The notes below the pieces were generated by a model. It had not been told where the DNA came from. It saw only the letters and a list, made by a program, of their open reading frames with translations, and did not search any database. From UHGV virus genome UHGV-0168719: 19,923 bases of DNA. One strand, written 5' to 3'. Made by a program: the position numbers and the translations under genes. The stretch comes from a virus. Below, piece after piece: positions 484 through 19,923 of this stretch (position 1 is its first letter; each line of letters begins with the position of its first letter).

Positions 484-519
484 TGCGTCCTCCCTAGTTT
501 CAATAGCATGGAGTTGCCT

Positions 520-840
520 ATGTTACACAGAGCCCTTCGTTTAATAAGGCAATACCATAAAGAGTCATTGGTTGATTTATCAACATCTTTAGGTATTCCA
601 AAAGAAAAAATAGTAGAACTCGAAAGTGGGGTTTGGTCGCCTACAATTGATGTTTTACAGCGTTACGCCTCCCATTTCGATATGCCGGTATCTTCTTTAG
701 TATTTTTTTCAGAATCGTTAGGTACGCAGGGGCGTTTATCTAAGCGTTTCCGTTTAAATTTAGCTGGTAAAGTATTAGATGTTATTGAGTGGGCGAATAA
801 GAAAAATGAAAAGACGAATAAAACTCAAAATTTCCACTAA
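520..840 (+). CDS. XRE-family (Cro/C1-type) helix-turn-helix protein, about 106 aa
   Basis: LRLIRQYHKESLVDLSTSLGIPKEKIVELESGVWSPTIDVLQRYASHFDMPVSSL fits the XRE HTH pattern. GGAG (510-513) sits 6 nt before ATG 520; the track's ATG 508 has no RBS. Stop TAA 838-840. Confidence 0.75.
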   Translation: MLHRALRLIRQYHKESLVDLSTSLGIPKEKIVELESGVWSPTIDVLQRYASHFDMPVSSLVFFSESLGTQGRLSKRFRLNLAGKVLDVIEWANKKNEKTNKTQNFH

Positions 841-1756
841 AAATAAATCTTACGATATAATTGATTCGCCGTTTTATAAAATGAGAAGTAAAAGGAAATT
901 GGCTTCTTTATTGGGGGTTGATGTAGGGGATTTATCAACCTTAAAAAAAGATGAAGGCAATTATTCTATTTTTGAACAGTTATCTAAAAACGGAAAGCCA
1001 CGTAAGATACAAAAACCATTAGAAAAATTAGATGTGGTGCATACTCGTATTGCAAGTCTGCTATCGCGAATTACCTTGCCAGATTATCTACATTCTGGAA
1101 AGAAGGGATGTTCTAATGTTACTAATGCTAAAATCCACCTTAATAATGAAAGGTTGATGACAACCGACATCAGGGCTTTTTTTCCATCAACTACTAGAGA
1201 AATGATATTTTCATTCTTTTTTTCTGTTATGAAGATGTCATCTGATGTTGCGGATGTATTATCGTATATATGTACTTGCTATGGGCGTTTGCCTACAGGT
1301 AGCAGGATTAGTATGCCTCTTGCATATTTTGCAAATTCAAGAATGTTCGGAGAAATACACCAACTTTGTAATAAACTACACGTAAATATGTCTGTTTATG
1401 TTGATGATCTAACTTTTTCAGGACAAAACGTTAATAGACTATTTTGTTCAGTGATTCGCAAAATAATAAATAAGCATGGTCATGTGATGCATGCGGATAA
1501 AACAAAAATTTATAGTAGAGAAAAGCCTAAGTTGGTAACAGGTGTTATTGTTTTGGGCGGTTCTTTAAAAGTCAGGAATAAGCAGCATCTTTTAATGTCT
1601 CAAGAAATTGAATATTGGAAAATGATAAAGGATGCAGCGTGTGCAAGAGAAACTCATACTGCCAAAAAGTTATTTGGACGATTGCATTCTATGGGGGTAA
1701 TTGAACAACGTTATAGATCAAAGGTGCTTACATTAAAAGCAAGTACTGCACTTTAA
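806..1756 (+). CDS. Reverse transcriptase, retron-type (about 316 aa from ATG 806; alternative starts 779 or 881)
   Basis: RT motifs in the translation: F..K.G..R.I..P...L...H.RI (fingers), NAKIHLNNERLMTTDIRAFFPS, YVDD catalytic motif (nt 1397-1408), and the retron-characteristic VTG motif KPKLVTGVIVLGG (nt 1535-1543). Size fits retron RTs rather than the larger Abi-type RTs. Start 806 gives an N-terminal length like Ec86 and overlaps the HTH gene by 35 nt in another frame; 881 gives no overlap. Confidence 0.85.
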   Translation: MKRRIKLKISTKNKSYDIIDSPFYKMRSKRKLASLLGVDVGDLSTLKKDEGNYSIFEQLSKNGKPRKIQKPLEKLDVVHTRIASLLSRITLPDYLHSGKKGCSNVTNAKIHLNNERLMTTDIRAFFPSTTREMIFSFFFSVMKMSSDVADVLSYICTCYGRLPTGSRISMPLAYFANSRMFGEIHQLCNKLHVNMSVYVDDLTFSGQNVNRLFCSVIRKIINKHGHVMHADKTKIYSREKPKLVTGVIVLGGSLKVRNKQHLLMSQEIEYWKMIKDAACARETHTAKKLFGRLHSMGVIEQRYRSKVLTLKASTAL

Positions 1757-1864: not shown

Positions 1865-3229
1865 CTAATTTTTTAATGTGTATTTTTCTGTGATTAGTTT
1901 CATTGTTCTTTCCAATCCTAAATATACAGTGGCATCAGTAATATTGAGCACGGCAAGTTCTTTTAAAATTTTCTTTTTGTCTCTGATGTTTATTTTTTCT
2001 GTCTTAAAGTTGTATGGTGAATTATCTGCCTGATCGTTGGATATCTCAGGAAAAACGGCGTTATTACCGAATAATAAAAAGGCACCGGATTGAGATGATA
2101 TTCTTTCATTATTTATCCTGCTTTTTACAAAAATTATCTTTTCCAAATCATCTGGATTTATTATGCTTTGAAAATATGGTTTTTCATGCTTTATGGATTC
2201 TAAGAGTTTAAGGCAAGCATGAGAGTTGTTAAAATCATTATTTCTTTCTTCGAAAGAAAGCTTGTCTTTCATGTCTTTTGATAGCATGCATAAATTAGAT
2301 ATGCAACTGACAGTGTCGGAATCGAAAAATTTAATGTTCTCTCTGTGTGTTTTAAATATTATTACTTGACCATCGATATCGTTTTTGTCGGAATTTATAC
2401 TACTGCATGCAAAATAAAGTGCAATTAATGGATTTGATGTGATGTCAAGTAAGCGAGTAGGTATGCCATAATGTTGCATTCTTACAAGTTTATCAAGCAT
2501 TGATGTATCATCAATGAATTCTGAGGGTCTTGCGCTCAATGCTTCTTTAACAAGGTTGATTTCATTATGTAGAAATTTATAGTTCCCATTTTCATATTTT
2601 CTGAAAAGAGATGGTGCAAGTTCATAAGATGAATCTGAATGACCCCTGTAAAAAATCTCCTCATCCATATCTGCTGTTATATGGAGAACTTTTTCAATAA
2701 ATTCTTGTAAACTATTTACGGTTAATAATGTGCTATCTTCGTCTGGGAGAGGCGCTGGACTGCTATCCACTTGTGCATTTTGGTTAATACCAAATGTCTT
2801 AAGGATATCATCTATATTTTTGTCTTTTATGGCCCAGTGTGTTCTTTTAAGGCCATAAGTTCCGAGTTCTAAACTGCTTTCAACACTTTTGGCGTCTGAT
2901 ATTTTGATTTCATTGTGTGTATGGGTGATTGCAAATTGGAAGTTGATTTCTTTTCCCTTAATGTGAATATTTGAAATTCTTCCAATTCGTATGTCGACAT
3001 AATAAGGTTTTGCTCCCTCTATTTGATAAGCTTCACTCATGAATATTGTTGGGAGTTTTTCAAGATAAGATAGTACATTGCTGCTTAATGGGGATAGTTT
3101 TTTGCGAATACCATCGGAGGTGTTTTCAAACATTCGTGATAAAAGAAATGAGAATTCTCCATTATTTTGGCTGAATGGTTTCCAGTGGTCGTAGTGGTCG
3201 GGAAAACCACCCATAATTAAATTAATCAT
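1865..3229 (-). CDS. FRG-domain protein (454 aa) with an unassigned ~190-aa N-terminal region
   Basis: Central region carries the FRG-domain signature: EEIFYRGHSDSSYELAPSLFRK ... LVRMQHYGIPTRLLDITSNPLIALYFAC ... ERISSQSGAFLLFG (roughly nt 2070-2655). AT-rich gene convergent with the RT operon; ATG at 3229. Confidence 0.8.
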   Translation of the reverse strand: MINLIMGGFPDHYDHWKPFSQNNGEFSFLLSRMFENTSDGIRKKLSPLSSNVLSYLEKLPTIFMSEAYQIEGAKPYYVDIRIGRISNIHIKGKEINFQFAITHTHNEIKISDAKSVESSLELGTYGLKRTHWAIKDKNIDDILKTFGINQNAQVDSSPAPLPDEDSTLLTVNSLQEFIEKVLHITADMDEEIFYRGHSDSSYELAPSLFRKYENGNYKFLHNEINLVKEALSARPSEFIDDTSMLDKLVRMQHYGIPTRLLDITSNPLIALYFACSSINSDKNDIDGQVIIFKTHRENIKFFDSDTVSCISNLCMLSKDMKDKLSFEERNNDFNNSHACLKLLESIKHEKPYFQSIINPDDLEKIIFVKSRINNERISSQSGAFLLFGNNAVFPEISNDQADNSPYNFKTEKINIRDKKKILKELAVLNITDATVYLGLERTMKLITEKYTLKN

Positions 3230-3741: not shown

Positions 3742-4776
3742 TCAGCCGTTGTCAGTGTCCAGTGAGTAGTTTTTAAAGCGGATGACCTCCTGGCCGAGCC
3801 AGCCGTTTATTTCCCGAATCCTGTCCTGTAACGGGATTAGCTCATTGCGGACAAAGACCTTTGCCACTTTCTCAATATCACCCAGTGACCCGACGTTCTC
3901 CGGCTTGCCACCCATCAACTGAAAGGGGATGCGGTGTGCGTCCAGCAGGTCAGCGGCGCTGGCTTTTTTGATATTAAAAAAATCGTCCTTCGTCGCCACT
4001 TCACTGAGGGGGATAATTTTAATGCCGTCGGCTTTCCCCTGCGGGGCATAGAGAAACAGGTTTTTAAAGTTGTTGCGGCCTTTCGACTTCACCATGTTTT
4101 CGCGAAGCATTTCGATATCGTTGCGATCCTGCACGGCATCGGTGACGTACATGATGTATCCGGCATGTGCGCCATTTTCGTAATACTTGCGGCGGAACAG
4201 CGTGGCCGACTCATTCAGCCAGGCAGAGTTAAGGGCGCTGAGATATTCCGGCAGGCCGTACAGCTCCTGATTAATATCAGGCTCCAGCAGGTGAAACACG
4301 GAGCCGGGCGCGAAGGCTGTCGGCTCGTTGAAGGACGGCACCCACCAGTAAACATCCTCCTCCACGCCACGACGGGTATATTTTGCCGGTGAGGTTTCCA
4401 GTCTGATGACCTTACCGGTGGTGCTGTAACGCTTTTCCAGAAACGCATTACCGAACACCAGAAAATCCAGCACAAAGCGGCTGAAATCCTGTTGTGAAAG
4501 CCACGGATGCGGGATAAATGTCGAGGCCAGAATATTACGTTTGACGTAAATCGGTGAGCTGTGATGCACGGCAGCACGCAGGCTTTTTGCCAGACCGGTA
4601 AAGCTGACCGGCGGCTCATACCATCTGCCGTTACTGATGCACTCGACGTAATCCAGAATGTCACGGCGGTCGAGTACCGGCACCGGCTCACCAAAGGTGA
4701 ATGCCTCCATTTTCGGGGCGCTGGCGGTCATTTTTTTTGCCGCAGGTTGCGGTGTTTTCCCTTTTTTCTTGCTCAT
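3742..4776 (-). CDS. Q: Portal protein
   Basis: 344-aa translation (MSKKKGKTPQPAAKKMTASAPKMEAFTFGEPVPVLDRRDILDYVECISNGRWYEPP...) matches the P2 Q protein as remembered; the start ATG overlaps the P stop as ATGA. Confidence 0.95.
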   Translation of the reverse strand: MSKKKGKTPQPAAKKMTASAPKMEAFTFGEPVPVLDRRDILDYVECISNGRWYEPPVSFTGLAKSLRAAVHHSSPIYVKRNILASTFIPHPWLSQQDFSRFVLDFLVFGNAFLEKRYSTTGKVIRLETSPAKYTRRGVEEDVYWWVPSFNEPTAFAPGSVFHLLEPDINQELYGLPEYLSALNSAWLNESATLFRRKYYENGAHAGYIMYVTDAVQDRNDIEMLRENMVKSKGRNNFKNLFLYAPQGKADGIKIIPLSEVATKDDFFNIKKASAADLLDAHRIPFQLMGGKPENVGSLGDIEKVAKVFVRNELIPLQDRIREINGWLGQEVIRFKNYSLDTDNG

Positions 4777-6548
4777 CAGTAAAACTCCAGAATGGTGGAT
4801 GTCAGCGGGGTGCTGATACCGGCGGTGAGTGGCTCATTTAACAGGGCGTGCATGGTCGCCCAGGCGAGGTCGGCGTGGCTGGCTTCCTCGCTGCGGCTGG
4901 CCTCATAGGTGGCGCTGCGTCCGCTGCTGGTCATGGTCTTGCGGATAGCCATAAACGAGCTGGTGATGTCGGTGGCGCTGACGTCATATTCCAGACAGCC
5001 ACGGCGGATAACGTCTTTTGCCTTGAGCACCATTGCGGTTTTCATTTCCGGTGTGTAGCGGATATCGCGCGCGGCGGGATAGAACGAGCGCACGAGCTGG
5101 AACACGCCGACACCGAGGCCGGTGGCATCAATACCGATGTATTCGACGTTGTATTTTTCGGTGAGTTTGCGGATGGATTCAGCCTGAGTGGCAAAGTCCA
5201 TGCCTTTCCACTGGTGACGCTCAAGTATTCTGAATTTGCCACCGGCCACCACCGGCGGTGCCAGCACCACGCATCCGGCACTGTCGCCACGGTGTGACGG
5301 GTCGTAACCAATCCAGACCGGGCGTGAGCCGAACGGATTGGCGGCAAACGGCGCATAGTCTTCCCATTCTTCCAGCGTGTCGACCATGCAGCGTTGCAAC
5401 TCCTCGAACGGGAACACCGACGCCTTGTCGTCAACAAATTCACACATGAACAGGTTTTTAAAATCGTCGGCGCTGTTTTCGCGTTTGAGTTGCTCAATGT
5501 CGAACAGCGTGCAGCCGCCTTTCAGGGCGTCCTCAATGGTGACAATCTGCCGCCACTGGCCGTCCGCACAGAGAAGCCCGCTGGCAAGGGCGTTATGACT
5601 GACGTCGATTTCCACACGTTCGGCGGCGCTGGCACGTCCCCGGTTGAACAGTTCACCTGACCAGAACGGGTAGGCGTCGTGCGCCAGCGTGGACGGGGTG
5701 GAGAAATAGGTCGAGCGCAGGTGACTCTGTGAGGCCATACCTGATGCCACCTTACGCAGTACCTGAAAATTCGGGATCCAGAAAATCTCGTCGACGTACA
5801 GGTCGCCGTTATGGCTCTGCGCGGTGTTGGAGTTGGTGCCGAGAAAAATCAGTTTTGAGCCGTTATTGCCCAGGACAATCGGGTCACCGGTCAGGTCAAC
5901 GTCAACCAGCCGGGCAAAGGCGATGATGTATTCGCGGAACACATACGCCTGCGTTTTACTGGCCGACAGAAAAATCTGGTTATGACCGGTTTTCAGGGCG
6001 CGCAGCAGCGCCTCGCGGGAAAAATAAAACGTTGCGCCAATCTGGCGGGATTTCAGGATATCGCGGATGCGGTGCTCAAGCCCGGCGCGATACCAGTGCA
6101 ACTGATAGTCGAAAGACTGCTCAAAGAAAATCTGCTCCAGCTTTTCGATGGCCTCGTCACTGAAAAAATTCTTTTTCGGTTTGCGACGCCCGCCTTTGTT
6201 GCGGTTAGCGACGTTCGGATTAAGGTCTGCCTCGTTGCCGGTCTGACTGTAGCGGTTTACCCGTGCCAGTCGTTCAATCTGGCGTCCGAGCAGGTCAATT
6301 TCCTTGAAGTCACCACCGGTTTTCTGCGGTTTGATAATGAGCTGGGTCAGTCGCGCTTCCAGACTCATTTCGACACGGCTGATGGGGGCAACGCTGTCCC
6401 AGCCGTCGCGCTGTTTCCAGCTCTGCACCGTCGGGCGTTTCATCTGCAACATGGCGGCAATCTGCGGCACGGAAAACCCCTGCCAGTACAGCAGCGCCGC
6501 CTGACGACGCGGGTCGTGTAAAAGAGTGGTGTCTGTGGTGATGGTCAT
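4776..6548 (-). CDS. P: Terminase large (ATPase) subunit, 590 aa
   Basis: Translation from MTITTDTTLLHDPRRQAALLYWQGFSVPQIAAMLQ matches P2 P; start set at the ATG at 6546-6548 rather than the longer track ORF start at 6578. Confidence 0.93.
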   Translation of the reverse strand: MTITTDTTLLHDPRRQAALLYWQGFSVPQIAAMLQMKRPTVQSWKQRDGWDSVAPISRVEMSLEARLTQLIIKPQKTGGDFKEIDLLGRQIERLARVNRYSQTGNEADLNPNVANRNKGGRRKPKKNFFSDEAIEKLEQIFFEQSFDYQLHWYRAGLEHRIRDILKSRQIGATFYFSREALLRALKTGHNQIFLSASKTQAYVFREYIIAFARLVDVDLTGDPIVLGNNGSKLIFLGTNSNTAQSHNGDLYVDEIFWIPNFQVLRKVASGMASQSHLRSTYFSTPSTLAHDAYPFWSGELFNRGRASAAERVEIDVSHNALASGLLCADGQWRQIVTIEDALKGGCTLFDIEQLKRENSADDFKNLFMCEFVDDKASVFPFEELQRCMVDTLEEWEDYAPFAANPFGSRPVWIGYDPSHRGDSAGCVVLAPPVVAGGKFRILERHQWKGMDFATQAESIRKLTEKYNVEYIGIDATGLGVGVFQLVRSFYPAARDIRYTPEMKTAMVLKAKDVIRRGCLEYDVSATDITSSFMAIRKTMTSSGRSATYEASRSEEASHADLAWATMHALLNEPLTAGISTPLTSTILEFY

Positions 6549-6721
6549 GAATACCTCGCCGTGATGAATACACGGCAAGGCTACTGAGTCGCGCCCTGCG
6601 ATTCGCTAAGGTGCTGTTGTGTCAGTGATAAGCCATCCGGGACTGATGGCGGAGGATGCGCATCGTCGGGAAACTGATGCCGACATGTGACTCCTCTAAT
6701 CACTATTCAGGACTCCTGACA
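6549..6721. promoter_or_regulatory. Divergent late-promoter region between P and O
   Basis: Positional: 173-bp intergenic region between divergent late operons, as in P2. No perfect TGT-N12-ACA dyad was found here, so precise elements are not assigned. Confidence 0.4.
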
Positions 6722-13132: not shown

Positions 13133-13876
13133 TTATCTGGTCAAATAAGTGAGGGTACTCTCTTCAGGTATTAGTTGGATATCTCCACCCCAGACGTCCA
13201 TTATGTTTTTTCTTGCTTCCCAATATTCTGGATATGTGTTTTGATGAGCATTGTAGATACAAGCTAAAAGCCAGTGCTGGTATTTAAGAGTTGTGTATTG
13301 GTATTCCTCTATTATCGGCAAGATGAATAAATTTTTTTGTTCTGTTGACTTCAGGTATTCTTTTGATTTACCAGAAAGCCGGTCATTCTCCAGTATGGTT
13401 TCAATCTTAAATGCAAATCCGTGTATGTTTATTTTTTTCTGGAGGTGCATAAATGATGATATTAATGGGGAGATCATTTTTTGATGGGTTAGGATGTTTC
13501 TTAAATCTTCCATTAATTTTATGATTGGATTTTTTAAAAATTCTTCATTGATGATTTCTCTGGATTTATTGGTAATATCATCAATATTTAATACATTGAT
13601 TTTATGTAGATTACGCGTTGAATCTCTAAATGATAATGCTGAGGAGATATAGTTGAGAAAATGTCTTGATATATTTATGTGCTGTTTTTTTAATTCATTT
13701 CTATTAAGTGAGTAGTGGAATACAATTTCAGGAGAGTTGAATTTGCTTAATTCACTTTGAATCACCTCATAATTGGCAATGTGTATATGTCCAAGTAAAT
13801 TGGTGTCGGAAATTTTTAAATATTCTTTATGGGCGATGGTGTCTTTTTGTTTTTCCCAGATTTGATATTTATCCAT
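13133..13876 (-). CDS. Hypothetical protein (247 aa) in an AT-rich insertion between S and V
   Basis: Minus-strand ORF with AAGGAG 7 nt upstream of the ATG at 13876 (track ORF extends to 13975 with no RBS). No family recognised; contains an Rx4H motif (LRNILTHQK). P2 has a nonessential orf30 in this position; relatedness was not assessed. Confidence 0.7.
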   Translation of the reverse strand: MDKYQIWEKQKDTIAHKEYLKISDTNLLGHIHIANYEVIQSELSKFNSPEIVFHYSLNRNELKKQHINISRHFLNYISSALSFRDSTRNLHKINVLNIDDITNKSREIINEEFLKNPIIKLMEDLRNILTHQKMISPLISSFMHLQKKINIHGFAFKIETILENDRLSGKSKEYLKSTEQKNLFILPIIEEYQYTTLKYQHWLLACIYNAHQNTYPEYWEARKNIMDVWGGDIQLIPEESTLTYLTR

Positions 13877-13895
13877 GCTTCGGCTCCTTCTTGGT

Positions 13896-13913
13896 TGTGC
13901 CGAAAATGATACA
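13896..13913 (+). promoter_or_regulatory. TGT-N12-ACA dyad (Ogr-type late activator site) of the V-operon promoter
   Basis: Exact TGTgccgaaaatgatACA centred about 55 bp upstream of the V ATG (13960); the P2 late-promoter element is TGT-N12-ACA as I recall it. Confidence 0.5.
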
Positions 13914-13959
13914 ACGGGTTGCAATAGTTTTTCGAGCATATGTTCCCCATTATTGTCAT

Positions 13960-14595
13960 ATGAGCACATTATCAAGTATTCAGGAACTCGCGCGCGTACT
14001 GCGCAACATGATTCGCACCGGCATTATCGTCGAAACCGACCTTAACGCCGGTCGCTGCCGTGTGCAGACCGGCGGCATGTGTACCGACTGGCTTCAGTGG
14101 CTGACCCATCGCGCCGGACGTTCGCGCACATGGTGGGCACCTTCCGTGGGGGAGCAGGTGCTGATTCTGGCCGTGGGCGGTGAACTCGACACGGCGTTCG
14201 TTCTGCCGGGGATTTATTCCGGTGATAACCCCGCGCCGTCTGCGTCGGAGGATGCCCTGCATATCCGTTTCCCTGACGGGGCGGTGATTGAGTATGAACC
14301 CGAAACCAGTGCACTCACGGCAAGCGGAATTAAAACGGCCAGCGTGATGGCTTCTGATTCTGTTACTGCCACGGTGCCGGTGGTCACGGTGAAAGCATCA
14401 ACCCGCGTCACCCTGGACACACCGGAAGTGGTCTGCACCAACAAACTGACTACCGGCACGCTGGAAGTGCAGAAGGGCGGGACGATGCGCGGCAACATCG
14501 CGCATACCGGCGGTGAACTCTCATCAAACGGTAAGGTACTGCATACCCATAAACACCCCGGCGACAGCGGCGGCACAACAGGGGGACCTCTATGA
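13960..14595 (+). CDS. V: Baseplate spike/assembly protein V, 211 aa
   Basis: MSTLSSIQELARVLRNMIRTGIIVETDLNAGRCRVQTGGMCTDWLQW... matches P2 V; start at ATG 13960 (track ORF begins at an upstream TTG). Confidence 0.95.
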   Translation: MSTLSSIQELARVLRNMIRTGIIVETDLNAGRCRVQTGGMCTDWLQWLTHRAGRSRTWWAPSVGEQVLILAVGGELDTAFVLPGIYSGDNPAPSASEDALHIRFPDGAVIEYEPETSALTASGIKTASVMASDSVTATVPVVTVKASTRVTLDTPEVVCTNKLTTGTLEVQKGGTMRGNIAHTGGELSSNGKVLHTHKHPGDSGGTTGGPL

Positions 14596-14943: not shown

Positions 14944-15852
14944 ATGCCGATTATCGACCTGAACCAGCTACCCGCACCGGATGTGGTCGAGGAGCTGGAC
15001 TTTGAAACCATTCTCGCTGAACGCAAGGCGACACTGATTTCCCTTTACCCGGAAGACCAGCAGGAGGCGGTCGCCCGTACCCTGACGCTGGAATCCGAGC
15101 CTCTCGTCAAACTGCTGGAGGAAAATGCTTATCGTGAGCTTATCTGGCGTCAGCGTGTGAATGAGGCCGCACGGGCGGTGATGCTGGCCTGTGCCGCCGG
15201 TAATGACCTTGATGTGATTGGTGCCAATTACAACACCACGCGCCTGATTATCACCCCGGCAGATGATTCGACCCTCCCGCCGACACCGGCAGTGATGGAA
15301 TCTGACACGGATTATCGTCTGCGTATTCAGCAGGCGTTTGAAGGTTTAAGCGTCGCCGGGTCGGTGGGGGCCTATCAGTATCATGGTCGCAGTGCTGACG
15401 GGCGTGTCGCGGATATCTCTGTTACCAGTCCGTCTCCGGCCTGCGTCACCATCTCCGTGCTGTCACGTGAAAATAACGGTGTGGCATCCGAAGACCTGCT
15501 GGCTGTGGTGCGTAACGCCCTTAATGGCGAGGACGTCAGGCCGGTGGCTGACCGTGTGACCGTGCAGTCTGCCGCCATTGTTGAATACCAGATAAACGCC
15601 ACGCTGTATCTTTACCCTGGTCCAGAAAGCGAACCCATCCGCGCTGCTGCCGTGAAAAAACTGGAAGCGTACATCACGGCACAGCACCGGCTGGGGCGCG
15701 ACATCCGTCTGTCTGCCATTTATGCCGCTTTGCATGTGGAAGGCGTGCAGCGTGTCGAACTGGCTGCACCGCTGGCCGACATCGTGCTTAACAATACGCA
15801 GGCGTCTTTCTGCACCGAATACCGCGTCGTGACCGGAGGCTCGGATGAGTGA
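14944..15852 (+). CDS. J: Baseplate protein J, 302 aa
   Basis: Position and length match P2 J. Confidence 0.9.
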   Translation: MPIIDLNQLPAPDVVEELDFETILAERKATLISLYPEDQQEAVARTLTLESEPLVKLLEENAYRELIWRQRVNEAARAVMLACAAGNDLDVIGANYNTTRLIITPADDSTLPPTPAVMESDTDYRLRIQQAFEGLSVAGSVGAYQYHGRSADGRVADISVTSPSPACVTISVLSRENNGVASEDLLAVVRNALNGEDVRPVADRVTVQSAAIVEYQINATLYLYPGPESEPIRAAAVKKLEAYITAQHRLGRDIRLSAIYAALHVEGVQRVELAAPLADIVLNNTQASFCTEYRVVTGGSDE

Positions 15853-16456
15853 TTCGCGCCTGCTGCCAACCGGCTCATCGCCGCTTGAAGTTGCCGCCGC
15901 AAAAGCCTGTGCGGAAATTGAAAAAACGCCGGTCAGGATTCGTGAACTGTGGAACCCGGATACCTGTCCGGCAAATCTGCTGCCGTGGCTGGCGTGGTCA
16001 TTTTCGGTTGACCGCTGGGATGATAAGTGGCCGGAAGCGACAAAACGCGCTGTTATCCGCGATGCGTATTTCATTCACTGCCATAAGGGCACTATAGGCG
16101 CAATCCGGCGTGTGGTGGAGCCGCTCGGCTATCTGATTGAGGTGAGGGAGTGGTGGCAACTCAACGAGGAGCCGGGGACGTTCCGCATCGTTGTTGGTGT
16201 GCTTGAGCAGGGTATTACCGAGGAAATGTATCAGGAGCTGGAGCGCCTCGTTGCTGATGCAAAACCGGCAAGCCGCCATCTGACGGGACTGGCTATCAGC
16301 TTAAGTACAACCGGCAACATTTTTGCCGGTGCGGGATGCTATCACGGTGACGCCCTGACGGTTTATCCCTACACCCCGGAGGCCATTATTGTCGGAGGGG
16401 ATTATTTCCCGGCCTCGGCCATTCATTTAATTGATAACCTGAGAGTAAACGCATGA
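15845..16456 (+). CDS. I: Baseplate protein I
   Basis: [30 protein letters not shown]... matches the P2 I N-terminus; 203 aa here, a little longer than I recall for P2 I. Confidence 0.88.
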
Positions 16457-17613
16457 CAGTGAAATACTACGCCATTCTGACTAATCAGGGCGCAGCACGC
16501 CTGGCTAACGCGACGATGCTCGGCAGTAAGCTGAATCTGACGCAAATGGCCGTTGGTGATGCGAATGGTGTCTTGCCGACACCAGACCCGGCACAGACAA
16601 AACTGATTAATCAGAAACGCATTGCACCGCTGAATCTTCTGAGTGTTGACCCGAACAACCAGAGCCAGATTATTGCGGAGCAAATCATCCCTGAGAACGA
16701 GGGCGGATTCTGGATCCGTGAGATTGGGCTTTATGATGATGAAGGCGTACTCATTGCGGTGGCGAACTGCCCGGAAACGTACAAACCGCAGTTGCAGGAA
16801 GGAAGTGGTCGTACCCAGACTATCCGCATGATTCTGGTTGTCACGAATACCGAAGCTATTACGCTGAAAATCGACCCGTCGGTGGTATTGGCGACCCGTA
16901 AATACGTGGATGATGAAGTCCTGGAATTAAGGCTGTATGTGGATGACCAGATGAGAAAACACATTGCCGCACAGGACCCTCATACCCAGTATGCACAGAA
17001 ACATAATCCGACATTTACCGGAGAACCAAAAGCGCCGACGCCTGCCGCAGGAAATAACACCACGCGGATTGCGACCACTGCGTTTGTACAGGCCGCTATT
17101 ACCGCTCTGATTAACGGTGCGCCAGCCACACTGGACACACTGAAAGAAATTGCCGCGGCCATTAACAATGACCCGAAATTCAGCACCACCATTAACAATG
17201 CGCTGTCAGGTAAGCAGCCACTGGATGAGACGCTGACTCATTTGAGTGGAAAGGATGTTGCCGGTCTTCTCGCATACCTTGGTTTGGGAGAAGCGGCGAA
17301 AAGGAATGTGGGGACTGGGGCGAATCAGATACCTGATATGTCATCATATGCATCAGGTTCAGGCTGGCGAAAAATGCCAGATGGTTCAATTGAACAGTGG
17401 GGAGGAATTCGTTTTCCTGGTGAACACGAGCCTGTATCCGCCAATGTTTCATTCCCAATTCCATTTACACAGACACCGGACATTATAATTGTGTTCGATG
17501 GTGGTTTCGGGGGCGGGAATATGTGGGGGGCGACCAACTGGAGCACTACCGGCTTCATAGCTCACTGCAATTATGGTCTTGAAGGTGGTGCGTTTTTCGC
17601 TAAGGGCTGGTAA
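16453..17613 (+). CDS. H: Tail fibre protein H in its current orientation: constant N-terminal part plus short variable C-terminus
   Basis: N-terminus resembles P2 H (MAVGD..G.LP.PD, GGFW.RE.GLYDD.G.LIAVAN, GSGR.QT.RM...). The reading frame runs through the left crossover site (17267-17292, encoding LAYLGLGE) into a 107-aa C-terminus unrelated to the P2 H tail. Confidence 0.9.
17267..17292. other. Left crossover site of the invertible segment (26 bp, gix/cix-like)
   Basis: ttctcgcataccttggtttgggagaa matches the reverse complement of the right site at 21 of 26 positions, including 14 consecutive identical bases (ttggtttgggagaa). Confidence 0.7.
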
Positions 17614-18056
17614 TGATGAAATATCTGTACGTAAACAACCTGGCATATCCTTACGAACTTCAGTCTCTTTATGTTGAAAAAGGTGAATGGCCTGAAGAAA
17701 AAGGTGTTGATATAGACGAAGTAATTTTCAGGGAATATTTCTATGATACACCACCAGAAGGAAAATACAGATGTGTCGGAGAGGATGGACTGCCTGCATG
17801 GGCAGATATTCCTCCACCAACACGTGAAGAACAAATTGCATCAGCCGAAACTAAAAAGCAGCAATTGATTAACCAGGCCAACGAATACATCAACAGTAAA
17901 CAATGGCCAGGTAAAGCATCAATTGGTCGTCTGAAAGGTGAGGAACTGGCGCAATATAATTTGTGGCTGGATTATCTGGACGCACTGGAGCTGGTCGATA
18001 CTTCCAGTGCACCAGATATTGAATGGCCTACTCCTCCGGCAGTTCAGGCCAGATGA
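17613..18056 (+). CDS. Tail fibre assembly protein for the current orientation, 147 aa
   Basis: Position directly after H with TAATG coupling and AAGGG RBS; C-terminus LVDTSSAPDIEWPTPP parallels the C-terminus of the opposing tfa (DTSTAPDVIWPELPEE). Confidence 0.85.
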   Translation: MMKYLYVNNLAYPYELQSLYVEKGEWPEEKGVDIDEVIFREYFYDTPPEGKYRCVGEDGLPAWADIPPPTREEQIASAETKKQQLINQANEYINSKQWPGKASIGRLKGEELAQYNLWLDYLDALELVDTSSAPDIEWPTPPAVQAR

Positions 18057-18630
18057 CATCCGGCGCGGTGCTGGTATCTGTTGCCGTCACCGCGTCAATG
18101 TAATCCAGCACGGCGTTAAGTCGGGTTGTTTCTGCCTGCGTCAACTTCCGTCCGGCCTGTAATTTCAGCTGAATCAGACTAATGGAAGCCATTGCTGCAT
18201 TAATCAGTGACTGGCGCTGTGCTTCTGCCGCGTCTAGTGCGGCGCTATGCTGTGCCTCGGTATCCGTCACCCATTTCTCACCATCCCATTTATCGTATGG
18301 CGTTAATGGGGCGATAGTGGTTGTATTTTCAGGGTAATCACCCGGAACTGTGATTTCTTTGGTATCTCCCGTTTCGGTACTATAGACAACTTCACCGCGA
18401 TGGTCTGGCACATATTCCCATGAATTTAAATCTACAGAGCGACAGATTGCATAACCAGCTTTATGTGTACCTGGTGCATCCAGACAGGAACATGCCGGGA
18501 TACCGACGCCGACAGCGAGATATTCAGTTGATGTAGAAATATATTCCCGCGTTTCGCCATCATAGTTATGTACGATGATTTCCCCATCATTTAAAGCGTA
18601 ACCGTCTTTTCCCAAAATAGCCTGTTCCAT
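18028..18630 (-). CDS. Alternative tail fibre assembly protein for the inverted orientation, 200 aa
   Basis: Minus-strand ORF directly downstream of the alternative H cassette; C-terminus resembles the other tfa; its 3' end overlaps the plus-strand tfa by 29 bp. Confidence 0.85.
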   Translation of the reverse strand: MEQAILGKDGYALNDGEIIVHNYDGETREYISTSTEYLAVGVGIPACSCLDAPGTHKAGYAICRSVDLNSWEYVPDHRGEVVYSTETGDTKEITVPGDYPENTTTIAPLTPYDKWDGEKWVTDTEAQHSAALDAAEAQRQSLINAAMASISLIQLKLQAGRKLTQAETTRLNAVLDYIDAVTATDTSTAPDVIWPELPEE

Positions 18631-19142
18631 TTATGCAGCCCTCACAATGTAGTTAAATGCAATGTTTCGCGGGCTACCATCACCGGCGCCGGAACTGACA
18701 TGATTGGTTCTATCCATTCGTTTACTGTCATTTGTTGTTCCACTCCCATCCTTCCACGAATACAATATCCCGCCATCGCCAATGCTCAACTGCACCGCAA
18801 ATACGGATGATGTACCTAATTCACCAACATCTCTAGCCATGAGTGGGTTCCCTGTCCATCCATGCATTTCATGGTTATGTTCAAGGATAGATGCTGCCTG
18901 ACTTGAAAGCAGCAGTCTCGCGGAATCAACACCTCGCCCATCATCCCACCCGCGAATAAACTCACCGCGCAAATCCGGTAATTTTAACTTTGGGTAAGCC
19001 TTTGCCAGTTTTGGGTACTCTTCGGCAGAAAAAGGTGCACCGTTGCATTTCAGCCAGCCTGTTGGTGGTGTGGCTGAAGGCCACGGAACAGGCACACCAA
19101 CGGGTAACGCTGAGCCTTCTCCCAAACCAACGTTTATGAAAA
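18631..19142 (-). CDS. Alternative tail-fibre C-terminal cassette (H'), promoterless, expressed only after inversion
   Basis: Translation from the crossover site (GLGEGSALPVGVPVPWPSATPPTGW ... NIAFNYIVRAA) resembles the P2 H C-terminus; in frame with the GLGE codons of the site. The track ORF runs to 19170 but that extension lies outside the segment. Confidence 0.8.
19117..19142. other. Right crossover site of the invertible segment (26 bp)
   Basis: ttctcccaaaccaacgtttatgaaaa, inverted relative to the left site, about 50 bp upstream of the invertase gene. Confidence 0.7.
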
Positions 19143-19197
19143 TGCAGAGATAACGGGCAACTGGCATCATCTCCGGTTTTTATTCAGGGGGATGCTC

Positions 19198-19791
19198 ATG
19201 CTTATTGGCTATGTGCGCGTGTCAACAAATGACCAGAACACGGAATTGCAGCGTAACGCGCTGGAGTGTGCAGGATGTGAGCTGATTTTTGAGGATAAAA
19301 TCAGCGGCACGAAGTCCGACCGACCGGGACTGAAAAAACTGCTCAGAACATTATCAGCAGGTGACACTCTGGTGGTCTGGAAGCTGGACAGGCTGGGGCG
19401 TAGTATGCGGCATCTGGTCATTCTGGTTGAGGAACTGCGCGAACGCGGCGTTAATTTTCGCAGCCTGACGGATGCCATTGATACCAGCACGCCGATGGGA
19501 CGTTTTTTCTTTCATGTGATGGGTGCCCTGGCTGAAATGGAACGAGAACTCATTGTCGAGCGGACTCGCGCCGGACTGGAAGCGGCCAGAGCTAAAGGTC
19601 GTATTGGTGGCAGACGTCCGAAACTCACCGCGAGTGAGTGGGAGCAGGCCGGGCGGTTGTTGGCTGCAGGGGAATCACGTCAACGCGTGGCACTGATTTT
19701 TGATATTGGCCTGTCCACGCTCTATAAAAAATTCCCCGCCTCCGTGACAAAAAATAAATTGTGTCATCCCTTAGCCAACCGGGACAAATAG
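19198..19791 (+). CDS. Serine DNA invertase (Hin/Gin/Pin/Cin family)
   Basis: MLIGYVRVSTNDQNTELQRNAL with catalytic Ser, ...LVVWKLDRLGRSMRHL..., C-terminal HTH region GRLLAAGESRQRVALIFDIGLSTLYKKFPAS; start taken at ATG 19198 after GGGGGA (the track's ATG 19192 is also possible). Confidence 0.9.
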   Translation: MLIGYVRVSTNDQNTELQRNALECAGCELIFEDKISGTKSDRPGLKKLLRTLSAGDTLVVWKLDRLGRSMRHLVILVEELRERGVNFRSLTDAIDTSTPMGRFFFHVMGALAEMERELIVERTRAGLEAARAKGRIGGRRPKLTASEWEQAGRLLAAGESRQRVALIFDIGLSTLYKKFPASVTKNKLCHPLANRDK

Positions 19792-19850
19792 CCTGACATC
19801 TCCGGCACAACTGAAAATATCACTCACCCATTAACCACGGAGTTAAACGG

Positions 19851-19923
19851 ATGAGTGACTATCATCACGGCGTGCAGGTGCTGGAGATTAACGACGGCAC
19901 CCGCGTCATTTCCACCGTATCCA
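19851..19923 (+). CDS. FI: Tail sheath protein, 5' end only (runs off the window)
   Basis: MSDYHHGVQVLEINDGTRVISTVS matches the P2 FI N-terminus; GGAG RBS upstream. Confidence 0.85.
   Translation, partial: MSDYHHGVQVLEINDGTRVISTVS

Follow-up and report, generated by a model that had tools for sequence, protein, structure and literature searches.

An invertible tail-fibre segment of the Pin/Gin/Cin type in a P2-like Escherichia coli prophage

We analysed a 19,923-nucleotide stretch of viral DNA (the window) and conclude, with high confidence, that it contains a site-specific inversion switch of the Pin/Gin/Cin type in the tail-fibre region of a P2-like (Peduovirus) E. coli prophage. Two 26-bp crossover sites enclose two alternative C-termini for the fibre protein H, each in frame and each with its own chaperone gene. 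An intact invertase gene with an enhancer-like signature lies beside the right site, and both orientations of the segment occur at 100% identity in public assemblies. A reading of the DNA made without database searches (the sequence-only reading) had proposed a complete, programmed inversion switch that swaps the C-terminus of H, and the sites, the reading frames, the invertase and the two orientations bear this out. The range that it assigned to the switch, 17267-19142, runs exactly from site to site but leaves the invertase outside.

Crossover sites and the fibre forms they join

The fibre gene, the two sites and the genes between them are as follows.

16453-17613, plus strand: tail-fibre gene H in its present form, 386 aa, with a Phage_tail_fib N-terminus and Gp53-like_C
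16453..17280, plus strand: constant part of H, aa 1-276 (PF12571 Phage_tail_fib, E=2e-62), outside the invertible segment
17267-17292, plus strand: left crossover site, 26 bp, TTCTCGCATACCTTGGTTTGGGAGAA = TTCTCGCATACC-TT-GGTTTGGGAGAA, within the H coding sequence
17281..17613, plus strand: variable C-terminus A, 110 aa, GLGEAAKRN...AKGW (PF21882 Gp53-like_C; phrog_1396 tail fiber), now joined to H
17613..18056, plus strand: tail-fibre assembly chaperone A (tfa), 147 aa (PF02413 Caudo_TAP, E=1e-33), in the same orientation as C-terminus A
18028..18630, minus strand: tail-fibre assembly chaperone B (tfa), 200 aa (PF02413 Caudo_TAP, E=1e-31), now silent
18631..19128, minus strand: variable C-terminus B, 165 aa, GLGEGSALPV...IVRAA (PF07484 Collar; phrog_523 tail collar fiber), now not joined to H
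19117-19142, plus strand: right crossover site, 26 bp, TTCTCCCAAACCAACGTTTATGAAAA = TTCTCCCAAACC-AA-CGTTTATGAAAA

An inverted-repeat search of positions 16400-19923 returned the left and right sites as the longest inverted repeat (I1). The claim that these are inverted 26-bp sites identical at 21 positions held up in this search and on alignment. When the sites are read in one orientation, all five mismatches fall in the outer 12-bp half-sites, and there is no difference in the core TT or the inner 12 bp. Because the core is TT on one site and AA on the other, the two cores are the same when read in the same sense. Inverted, imperfectly dyad-symmetric sites of 26 bp with a shared asymmetric 2-bp core are those of the Hin, Gin, Cin and Pin systems. 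The half-sites of both sites match the family consensus TTCTCCTAAACC at 9-11 of 12 positions; those of the left site match the Gin/Cin/Pin consensus at 9/12 and 11/12.

Alignment to known crossover sites, which had been suggested as a check, succeeded for gix, cix and pix. The right site is identical at 26/26 positions to the e14 site adjoining pinE (4606-4631 of the e14 locus, L002), and the left site agrees with the left P-segment site of e14 at 23/26. The repeat that has been shown experimentally to bound the e14 P inversion, CCTTCTCCCAAACCAA, consists of the inner arm of the right site and its flank (PMC12529663). The left site is unchanged in the pro483, NCTC9040, GPEC and O157 prophages. 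Shuffled sequence gave 0 chance matches to the right site at ≤3 mismatches. No third crossover site was found in the window with ≤8 mismatches allowed, and we therefore ruled out, for the window, a shufflon of three or more sites such as that of one EPEC prophage.

The frame of H runs through the left site as ...LLAYL|GLGEAAKRN, and that of the minus strand runs through the right site as ...NV|GLGEGSALPV, with GLGE encoded in the fibre frame at each. The constant part of H ends with Leu276, and the crossover core TT lies within the codon of this residue, ctt. With the left site inside H and the frame (…AYL|GLGE…) preserved at both sites, the constant 276-aa shaft of H can be joined to either C-terminus. 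Flipping the segment in silico at the core produced an unbroken 441-aa H ORF in place of the present 386-aa H, in agreement with the proposal that the shared GLGE allows an in-frame swap. A constant fibre N-terminus outside the segment, with two opposed in-frame C-termini inside it, is the arrangement of Mu G, P1 C and e14 P.

Each C-terminus is followed by its own Caudo_TAP chaperone gene, one per orientation, and the same pairing of C-terminus and chaperone is seen in e14, pro483 and the GPEC and O157 relatives. Chaperone A is 60% identical to e14 TfaP over the C-terminal 98 aa, and chaperone B is 87% identical to e14 TfaE. The 3' ends of the two chaperone genes overlap by 29 nt, exactly like those of tfaP and tfaE in e14 (L002 3518-3546). 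The one intrinsic-terminator candidate after chaperone A, at 18060-18074, is weak, with a poor T tract, and we make no claim for it.

The constant part of H is 42% identical to residues 27-256 of P2 H and 99% identical to residues 1-276 of H of phage pro483. This P2 H-type N-terminus and shaft lies in a P2-type I-H-G / FI context, with Tail_P2_I upstream of H and FI and the P_F region, near-identical to P2, downstream. Resemblance to P2 H is confined to the N-terminal 276 aa. BLASTP against the full 669-aa P2 H returned no significant match for C-terminus A (best E=2.1) or C-terminus B (best E=1.3); against P2 G, chaperone A had no match and chaperone B gave E=0.025. Neither cassette, by BLASTP, has a receptor-binding C-terminus and chaperone homologous to P2 H and P2 G. 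The present orientation had been described as the one with the short, non-P2-like C-terminus, which is consistent with the lengths of the two forms (386 versus 441 aa) and with the lack of a P2 H match. The silent C-terminus had been described as P2-like, and the results with full-length P2 H and G lead us to reject that description. The silent cassette is e14 StfE/TfaE-like, judging from its identity to StfE (52% for C-terminus B) and to TfaE.

Orientations of the segment and the adjacent invertase

Public assemblies contain a 3,471-bp region of this locus at 100% identity in both orientations. Four loci (L015-L018) are identical to the flipped window over 3471/3471 or 3427/3427 positions, and five (L019-L023) are identical to the window as is; the two orientations of the exact sequence were drawn from different samples and independent assemblies. 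As exact proteins, the 441-aa H predicted by the in silico flip is present on 12 contigs in a cluster look-up and 23 in an index look-up, and the as-is 386-aa H on 6 and 14, respectively. Two pairs of related strains, GPEC1209/1210 and O157:H7 BB24-1/2-6-2, show no difference over 9.5-9.7 kb other than that the DNA bounded by these two sites is exactly reverse-complemented. At ≥80% coverage, 16 complete E. coli genomes match the as-is query and 24 match the flipped query. The DNA between the sites thus occurs in both orientations, as in other invertase systems. The sequence-only reading was to be abandoned if only one orientation was ever observed, or if the invertase was inactive or truncated; the first is answered by the assemblies, which hold the exact sequence in both states. 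We conclude that the switch does flip.

The invertase and a candidate enhancer within its gene lie immediately to the right of the segment.

19198-19791 (alternative start 19192), plus strand: serine DNA invertase, 197 aa (Resolvase, E=3e-52, and HTH_7), with Ser9 in the motif YVRVSTNDQ
19220..19282, plus strand: candidate recombinational enhancer, with Fis-consensus 15-mers TGTCAACAAATGACC (19220-19234) and GTGCAGGATGTGAGC (19268-19282)

The invertase is 88% identical to e14 PinE, 81% to Cin and 80% to Mu Gin. Against the Gin structure 3uj3, residues 1-182 align at E=2e-94 and the YVRVSTNDQ motif is conserved; the protein has the N-terminal catalytic domain, the serine at position 9/10 and the C-terminal helix-turn-helix of a small serine recombinase. 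The residues that contact Fis and the enhancer, reported to be specific to invertases that depend on them, are, in Hin, a basic patch on helix B (K47, K/R48 and K/R51) and Q151, R154 and L155 in helix 1 of the DNA-binding domain (PMC3798978). Their counterparts in the present protein are K46, K47 and R50 and positions within the stretch EWEQAGRLL, which does not differ from Gin (the alignment was made to Gin, and the Hin residue numbers were mapped via a one-residue offset from Gin numbering). The invertase is identical across loci of either orientation, and the exact protein is found on at least 1000 contigs. As far as can be told from its sequence, the enzyme is full length and retains the catalytic motif, which argues against an inactive or truncated invertase. 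A consensus scan found no sigma-70 promoter for the gene near 19140-19230. At 19161-19169 lies a block, TGGCATCAT, that is also conserved in e14 and Mu.

A Fis-dependent enhancer towards the 5' end of the invertase gene had also been put forward as something to look for. We scanned for it with a degenerate Fis consensus, and a signature is present at gene nt 23-85, although the pattern is unspecific (1.3 matches expected per window, and one unrelated match at 15458). The centres of the two 15-mers are 48 bp apart, and 97.5 bp separate the proximal one from the right crossover point. The pattern at nt 23-85 is common to this gene, pinE, gin and cin, and the pair of sites falls inside the annotated enhancer span of P1 (cin nt 19-90). 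Over the enhancer span, nucleotide identity is above that of the rest of the gene in every gene pair; the excess at nt 19-90 may come partly from the highly conserved N-terminal protein sequence. We considered synonymous-site conservation as independent proof of constraint at the DNA level and did not adopt it, since there was a trend towards extra conservation over the span that was not significant (5/19 versus 15/97, p=0.2). From the position and spacing of the 15-mers, this element is a candidate enhancer, and inversion may depend on Fis.

These features suggest the following mechanism. Dimers of the invertase would bind the two 26-bp sites, and an invertasome would assemble with the help of host Fis occupying the candidate enhancer near the start of the enzyme's own gene. 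Both sites would be cut at the central TT/AA dinucleotide, and rotation and religation would invert the intervening 1,850 bp. In systems of this family the reaction requires Fis and negative supercoiling. The shaft of H would then carry one or the other of two unrelated, putatively receptor-binding C-termini, Gp53-like (110 aa) or Collar-type (165 aa). Either orientation would place the matching chaperone gene directly 3' of H in the late V-W-J-I-H operon, and the opposite pair, pointing away from H, is predicted from the sequence not to be expressed as fibre. With two forms of H according to orientation, a lysogen population would release two types of virion that differ in adsorption specificity, which could serve as bet-hedging on host range. 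The rate of switching and a change of host range with orientation are inferred.

The invertase encoded in cis, and not some other Pin-type enzyme of the host, presumably carries out the flipping. Gin, Cin, Pin and Hin can substitute for each other, and a resident member of the family (PinE of e14, PinQ, PinR or Gin of a Mu prophage) might therefore do most of the flipping in trans, with the adjacent enzyme dispensable or weak. The identity of the right site to an e14 site is in keeping with this, as is the report that PinQ, encoded by the Qin prophage, is more active on the e14 segment than the adjacent PinE (PMC12529663). We nevertheless regard inversion mainly in trans as unlikely, because the neighbouring invertase is of full length and has every catalytic and Fis-contact motif, is the same in loci of both orientations and is conserved on so many contigs (at least 1000). 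Inversion in trans would, moreover, alter which enzyme acts and not the identity of the element.

The minus-strand reading frame

A further open reading frame enters the segment from the right.

19143..19170, minus strand: minus-strand leader, ATG at 19170/19167, outside the segment; homologue of the e14 stfE start; predicted ORF

The leader ORF (18631-19170, minus strand, with the Collar domain) runs through the right site into whichever C-terminus faces the leader. The product that gene callers derive from it is 124 aa in flipped loci and 179 aa in as-is loci. The switch might thus also, or even mainly, serve the host, if the ORF gave rise to a free, orientation-dependent receptor-binding fragment that blocked adsorption of other phages. 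This reading draws on the homology of the leader to the start of e14 stfE, on its continuity through the right site and on the annotated 124-aa or 179-aa product. It also has a precedent: inversion of e14 P yields StfE2, a chimera that blocks T2 adsorption (Kirigo et al. 2025, PMC12529663). However, a consensus scan found no minus-strand promoter near 19170-19230, and the Shine-Dalgarno-like GGAG is too close to the start codons, abutting the first ATG and lying 3 nt from the second. The e14 precedent, moreover, concerns a defective prophage, whereas the present prophage is apparently intact, with full sets of head and tail genes, so that a function in the fibre is enough to explain the switch. 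We therefore think it improbable that the switch serves the host in this way, and a phase-variable defence device in the lysogen, with the minus-strand ORF as a free phage-excluding fragment in addition to the host-range switch, seems slightly less probable still. If true, it would extend the 2025 report on e14 StfE2 to intact P2-like prophages.

The sites have a perfect inverted repeat of 16 bp in common, but it is highly improbable that the orientations in the databases reflect rare RecA-dependent or illegitimate recombination at short inverted repeats, or assembly error, since 16 bp falls short of what efficient RecA recombination generally requires and is much too little to mislead assemblers, each state is found in many independent assemblies with zero other differences, and the repeats are invertase-family 26-bp sites with an invertase and an enhancer signature alongside. 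Inversion by the Pin-type invertase, with the fibre as its target, is the reading that we retain. The same prophage encodes a type VI retron and a candidate PDC-S15 defence gene; an Rfam scan of the window gave 0 matches.

Comparison with known inversion systems

Tail-fibre inversion switches of this kind have been known since the 1980s. The P segment and PinE of e14, a defective lambdoid prophage of E. coli K-12, were reportedly described by Plasterk and van de Putte in 1985. The switch analysed here is an unexceptional Gin/Cin/Pin system set in a P2-type backbone, a combination already documented experimentally for P2-like prophages (PMC4272514). Its exact sequence can already be found in public databases in either orientation, and biologically the locus brings nothing new. 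The cassette is widespread and common to e14-like and P2-like elements, of which this is one more copy, and the locus shows clearly how a P2 backbone has acquired a Pin module between H and the P_F promoter. For annotation, the minus-strand 179-aa "phage tail protein" is the alternative end of H and not a separate gene, and the orientation in any assembly is a snapshot of a mixed population. Prediction of host range for the prophage must take in both forms of the fibre.

The likeness to e14 extends from the sites (right 26/26, left 23/26), the invertase (88%) and the TfaE-like chaperone (87%) to the gene order (fibre N-terminus, crossover, C-terminus and tfa converging on tfa and C-terminus, crossover, invertase), including the same 29-nt convergent tfa overlap. 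However, e14 is a decayed lambdoid element, whereas here the switch follows gpI and precedes the FI sheath gene within a complete tail operon of the P2 myovirus type. The constant part of the fibre has an N-terminus of the P2 H type, and StfP and TfaP differ from the expressed C-terminus and the 5' half of the accompanying tfa. The tail of the invertase is longer by 13 aa and extends into the P_F promoter region of P2.

With the Mu G segment and Gin and the P1 C segment and Cin, the element shares mechanism, layout and half-site consensus, an invertase that is 80-81% identical and an enhancer signature at the same position in the gene, nt 23-85. The segment is shorter, at 1.85 kb versus about 3 kb in Mu and 4.2 kb in P1, and its C-termini are unrelated to S and S'. 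The core dinucleotide is TC/GA in Mu and TT/AA here, and the P1 invertase flanks the opposite end of its segment.

Sequencing and PCR have demonstrated inversion in e14 and in two P2-like EPEC prophages (Goldberg et al. 2014, PMC4272514), and the P2-like prophages of EPEC E2348/69 had mixed orientations within clonal cultures (PMC4272514). These prophages and pro483 (KR073661) resemble the present element in having a P2-type backbone with the invertase between the fibre genes and FI; the EPEC prophages are likened to it by kind and not by aligned sequence. One EPEC prophage has three sites and four variants, in contrast to the two sites and two variants here. The crossover sites of pro483 are the same and its invertase is 96% identical, whereas its cassettes have other contents, with C-termini that are 48-55% identical. 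P2 itself shares the N-terminal fibre domain and shaft (42% identical) and the flanking P2-type I and FI genes, but has one fixed C-terminus with its chaperone and fun(Z) where the invertase stands here. All that P2 H retains is a fossil crossover site, a gix-like 26-mer (23/26 to Mu gix) at the equivalent place in the gene.

The fibre module in its P2-like prophage

The window is a P2-like prophage, in which the portal and terminase genes are followed by head, lysis and tail genes, baseplate genes V-W-J-I, the fibre gene H and, last, the beginning of sheath gene FI. The features discussed here are as follows.

508-840, plus strand: HTH_VI of a type VI retron (E=7e-30)
779-1756, plus strand: RT_VI of a type VI retron (E=1e-105)
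1865-3229, minus strand: FRG-domain protein, candidate defence family PDC-S15 (E=7e-98)
3742-6578, minus strand: portal and terminase genes
16453-17613: gene H; constant part, aa 1-276, with a Phage_tail_fib domain
End of H: current C-terminus, 110 aa, with a Gp53-like_C domain
Directly after this C-terminus: chaperone A, 147 aa, Caudo_TAP
Opposite strand: chaperone B, 200 aa, Caudo_TAP
Opposite strand: alternative H C-terminus, 165 aa, with a Collar domain
Starting 55 bp past the right crossover site: serine recombinase (invertase), 197 aa, Resolvase and HTH_7 domains

The chaperone genes are convergent, and their 3′ ends share 29 nt. In the corresponding stretch of P2 lie the H C-terminus, G, a terminator and fun(Z), whereas the window has a switch module with an invertase; in both, FI comes after the region of the late promoter P_F. 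P2 backbone homology picks up again at ~19760, and the last invertase codons therefore fall in the P_F activator-site region. Because this 3′ end of the ORF (19760-19791) runs into sequence homologous to the activator-site area of P_F, the invertase tail is 13 aa longer than that of PinE. The same stretch marks the right-hand point at which the switch module was grafted into the P2 backbone.

The retron pair (508-1756, plus strand) adjoins the FRG-domain gene, and the two occupy the known P2 cargo hotspot immediately left of the portal gene; Rfam found no retron msr/msd RNA in the window. An orphan ORF (13133-13975, minus strand; 247-280 aa) sits in the P2 orf30 slot, with tail gene S on one side and baseplate gene V on the other. 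It had no Pfam or PADLOC match, its sole match being phrog_12680, a family without assigned function.

Crossover sites, invertase and proposed mechanism

The longest inverted repeat within 16400-19923 pairs 17267-17293 with 19116-19142. The left 26-mer is TTCTCGCATACC-TT-GGTTTGGGAGAA; the right one, read from the opposite strand, is TTTTCATAAACG-TT-GGTTTGGGAGAA. Of the 26 positions 21 agree; those that differ are all in the outer half-sites, the 2-bp core and inner half-sites being identical. No further copy was found in the window with up to 8 mismatches allowed. The H frame reads GLGE across the left site, and a minus-strand ORF (18631-19170) crosses the right site as ...NV-GLGE-GSALPV. Exchange at the core in silico replaced the present 386-aa H with an unbroken 441-aa H. 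The repeat search and the in silico inversion thus bore out the sequence-only reading, which had described two inverted sites permitting an in-frame swap.

The invertase shares 88% identity with PinE, 81% with Cin and 80% with Gin. It is intact rather than truncated: residues 1-182 align to the crystal structure of Gin, and the motif of catalytic Ser9 is kept. Residues specific to Fis/enhancer-dependent invertases are a basic helix-B patch and Hin Q151/R154/L155 (McLean et al., PMC3798978). In the window protein these correspond to K46, K47 and R50 and to a stretch, EWEQAGRLL, that Gin has unchanged.

The Cin enhancer is annotated at cin nt 19-90 in the P1 record, and the 5′ ends of the window gene, pinE, gin and cin form a gap-free alignment. 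A degenerate Fis consensus of the older literature is (G/T)NNYRNN(A/T)NNYRNN(C/A); our enhancer pattern combined two copies of it at a centre-to-centre distance of 48 bp. The four genes and all fetched relatives carry a match at gene nt 23-85. In the window the match spans 19220-19282, and 97.5 bp separate its proximal centre from the right crossover point. Alone the pattern is unspecific (1.3 matches expected per window; one unrelated match at 15458), and a test for excess synonymous conservation over the enhancer span was not significant. The enhancer that was to be looked for in the 5′ part of the gene is therefore a candidate, supported by positional homology but not proven.

The mechanism, from the enzyme chemistry onward, is carried over from the homologous systems Hin and Gin. 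Invertase dimers at both sites would join a Fis-bound enhancer in an invertasome; cutting at the TT/AA core, subunit rotation and religation would then invert 1,850 bp. Since the inner half-sites are identical, both sites would be regenerated and the reaction would be reversible. Late-operon transcription would read H joined to the facing C-terminus and then the cognate chaperone, so that one lysogen could yield two virion types. A promoter scan detected no promoter within the invertible segment. Other Pin-type enzymes could plausibly flip the segment in trans, but this would leave the nature of the element unchanged.

The block TGGCATCAT (19161-19169) lies after the right site and ahead of the invertase start. 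It is kept in e14 and Mu (TGGCATGAT) and contains, on the minus strand, the leader-ORF start codons; possible roles are a promoter element for the invertase or a start codon. A report on e14 StfE2 (PMC12529663) suggests, by analogy, that the minus-strand ORF starting outside the segment at 19170 might have a defence role, but the scan found no promoter for it and its ribosome-binding site is poorly spaced.

Both orientations in public assemblies

The region in its present orientation and an in silico inverted version were each used to search complete E. coli genomes. At coverage of at least 80%, 16 matched the present orientation and 24 the flipped one. Among related strains, the pairs GPEC1210/GPEC1209 and O157:H7 BB24-1/2-6-2 differ over 9.5-9.7 kb only by an inverted block, an exact reverse complement bounded by sites identical to those of the window. 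The 441-aa and 386-aa H proteins are each present exactly in public collections. Four fetched loci (L015-L018) equal the flipped window at every compared base (3471 in three, 3427 in the fourth), and five (L019-L023) are identical to its present orientation across 3372-3471 bases; the window allele, with the same invertase, therefore exists in both states in separate assemblies. Homologous recombination or assembly error is a very unlikely source of the two orientations, the repeats being short and the assemblies many and independent. Mixed orientation within one clonal population has been found by sequencing and PCR for e14 and two P2-like EPEC prophages (PMC4272514), and e14 inversion at the same repeats by qPCR (PMC12529663). 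We concluded that this P2-type prophage carries a complete and evidently active Pin-type inversion switch for its tail fibre.

For one orientation of the O157:H7 BB24-1 locus (L010, 3001-4422), RefSeq calls H a pseudogene and lists a gp53-like gene separately. The 473-aa H frame is intact, and the call is an annotation artefact of the switch state. In two other assemblies (L013 and L014, 1-4500), the same tail-fibre module, in the flipped state, has gpA, a reverse transcriptase and a truncated V as neighbours, and no head genes intervene; these look like a deleted prophage that retains tail genes.

Comparison with known switches

The order in e14 of E. coli K-12, stfP (ycfK), tfaP, opposite-strand tfaE and stfE, and pinE, is that of the window, as is the 29-nt tfa overlap. 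The e14 site adjoining pinE matches the right site at 26/26 positions, and the other e14 site matches the left at 23/26. A sequence search placed the Mu gix sites precisely at the G-segment ends given in the annotation; P1 cix sites were taken from the record annotation. Against the half-site consensus common to both (TTCTCCTAAACC), the window sites match at 9-11 of 12 positions, and they align with known invertase sites.

The expressed C-terminus is short and non-P2-like, as had been proposed; the accompanying view that the silent one is P2-like was rejected. Against the full 669-aa P2 H, the match is limited to the constant part (42% identity), and the best E-values for the two C-termini were only 1.3 and 2.1; neither resembles P2 H. 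The silent chaperone matched P2 G at E=0.025 only. The silent cassette is e14-like (52% identity to StfE, 87% to TfaE).

P2 H carries a fossil crossover site, TTATCGAATATCTCGGTTTACAGGAA (L007, the P2 locus, 1858-1883; P2 coordinates 13857-13882), 23/26 to Mu gix and encoding ..IEYLGLQE.. at the position in H that corresponds to the left site; P2 lacks the invertase, whereas the window has one. The H shaft (window ~17180-17200; compare locus L001, 1501-2883) contains a 74-aa (222-bp) unit matching the b1/b2 repeats of P1 S. One copy is present in the window and the GPEC prophage and two in the NCTC9040 and O157:H7 prophages, so fibre length varies with repeat copy number.

Switches of this kind have been known since the 1980s and demonstrated in P2-like prophages, and one is already annotated in phage pro483. 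The exact sequence is already public.
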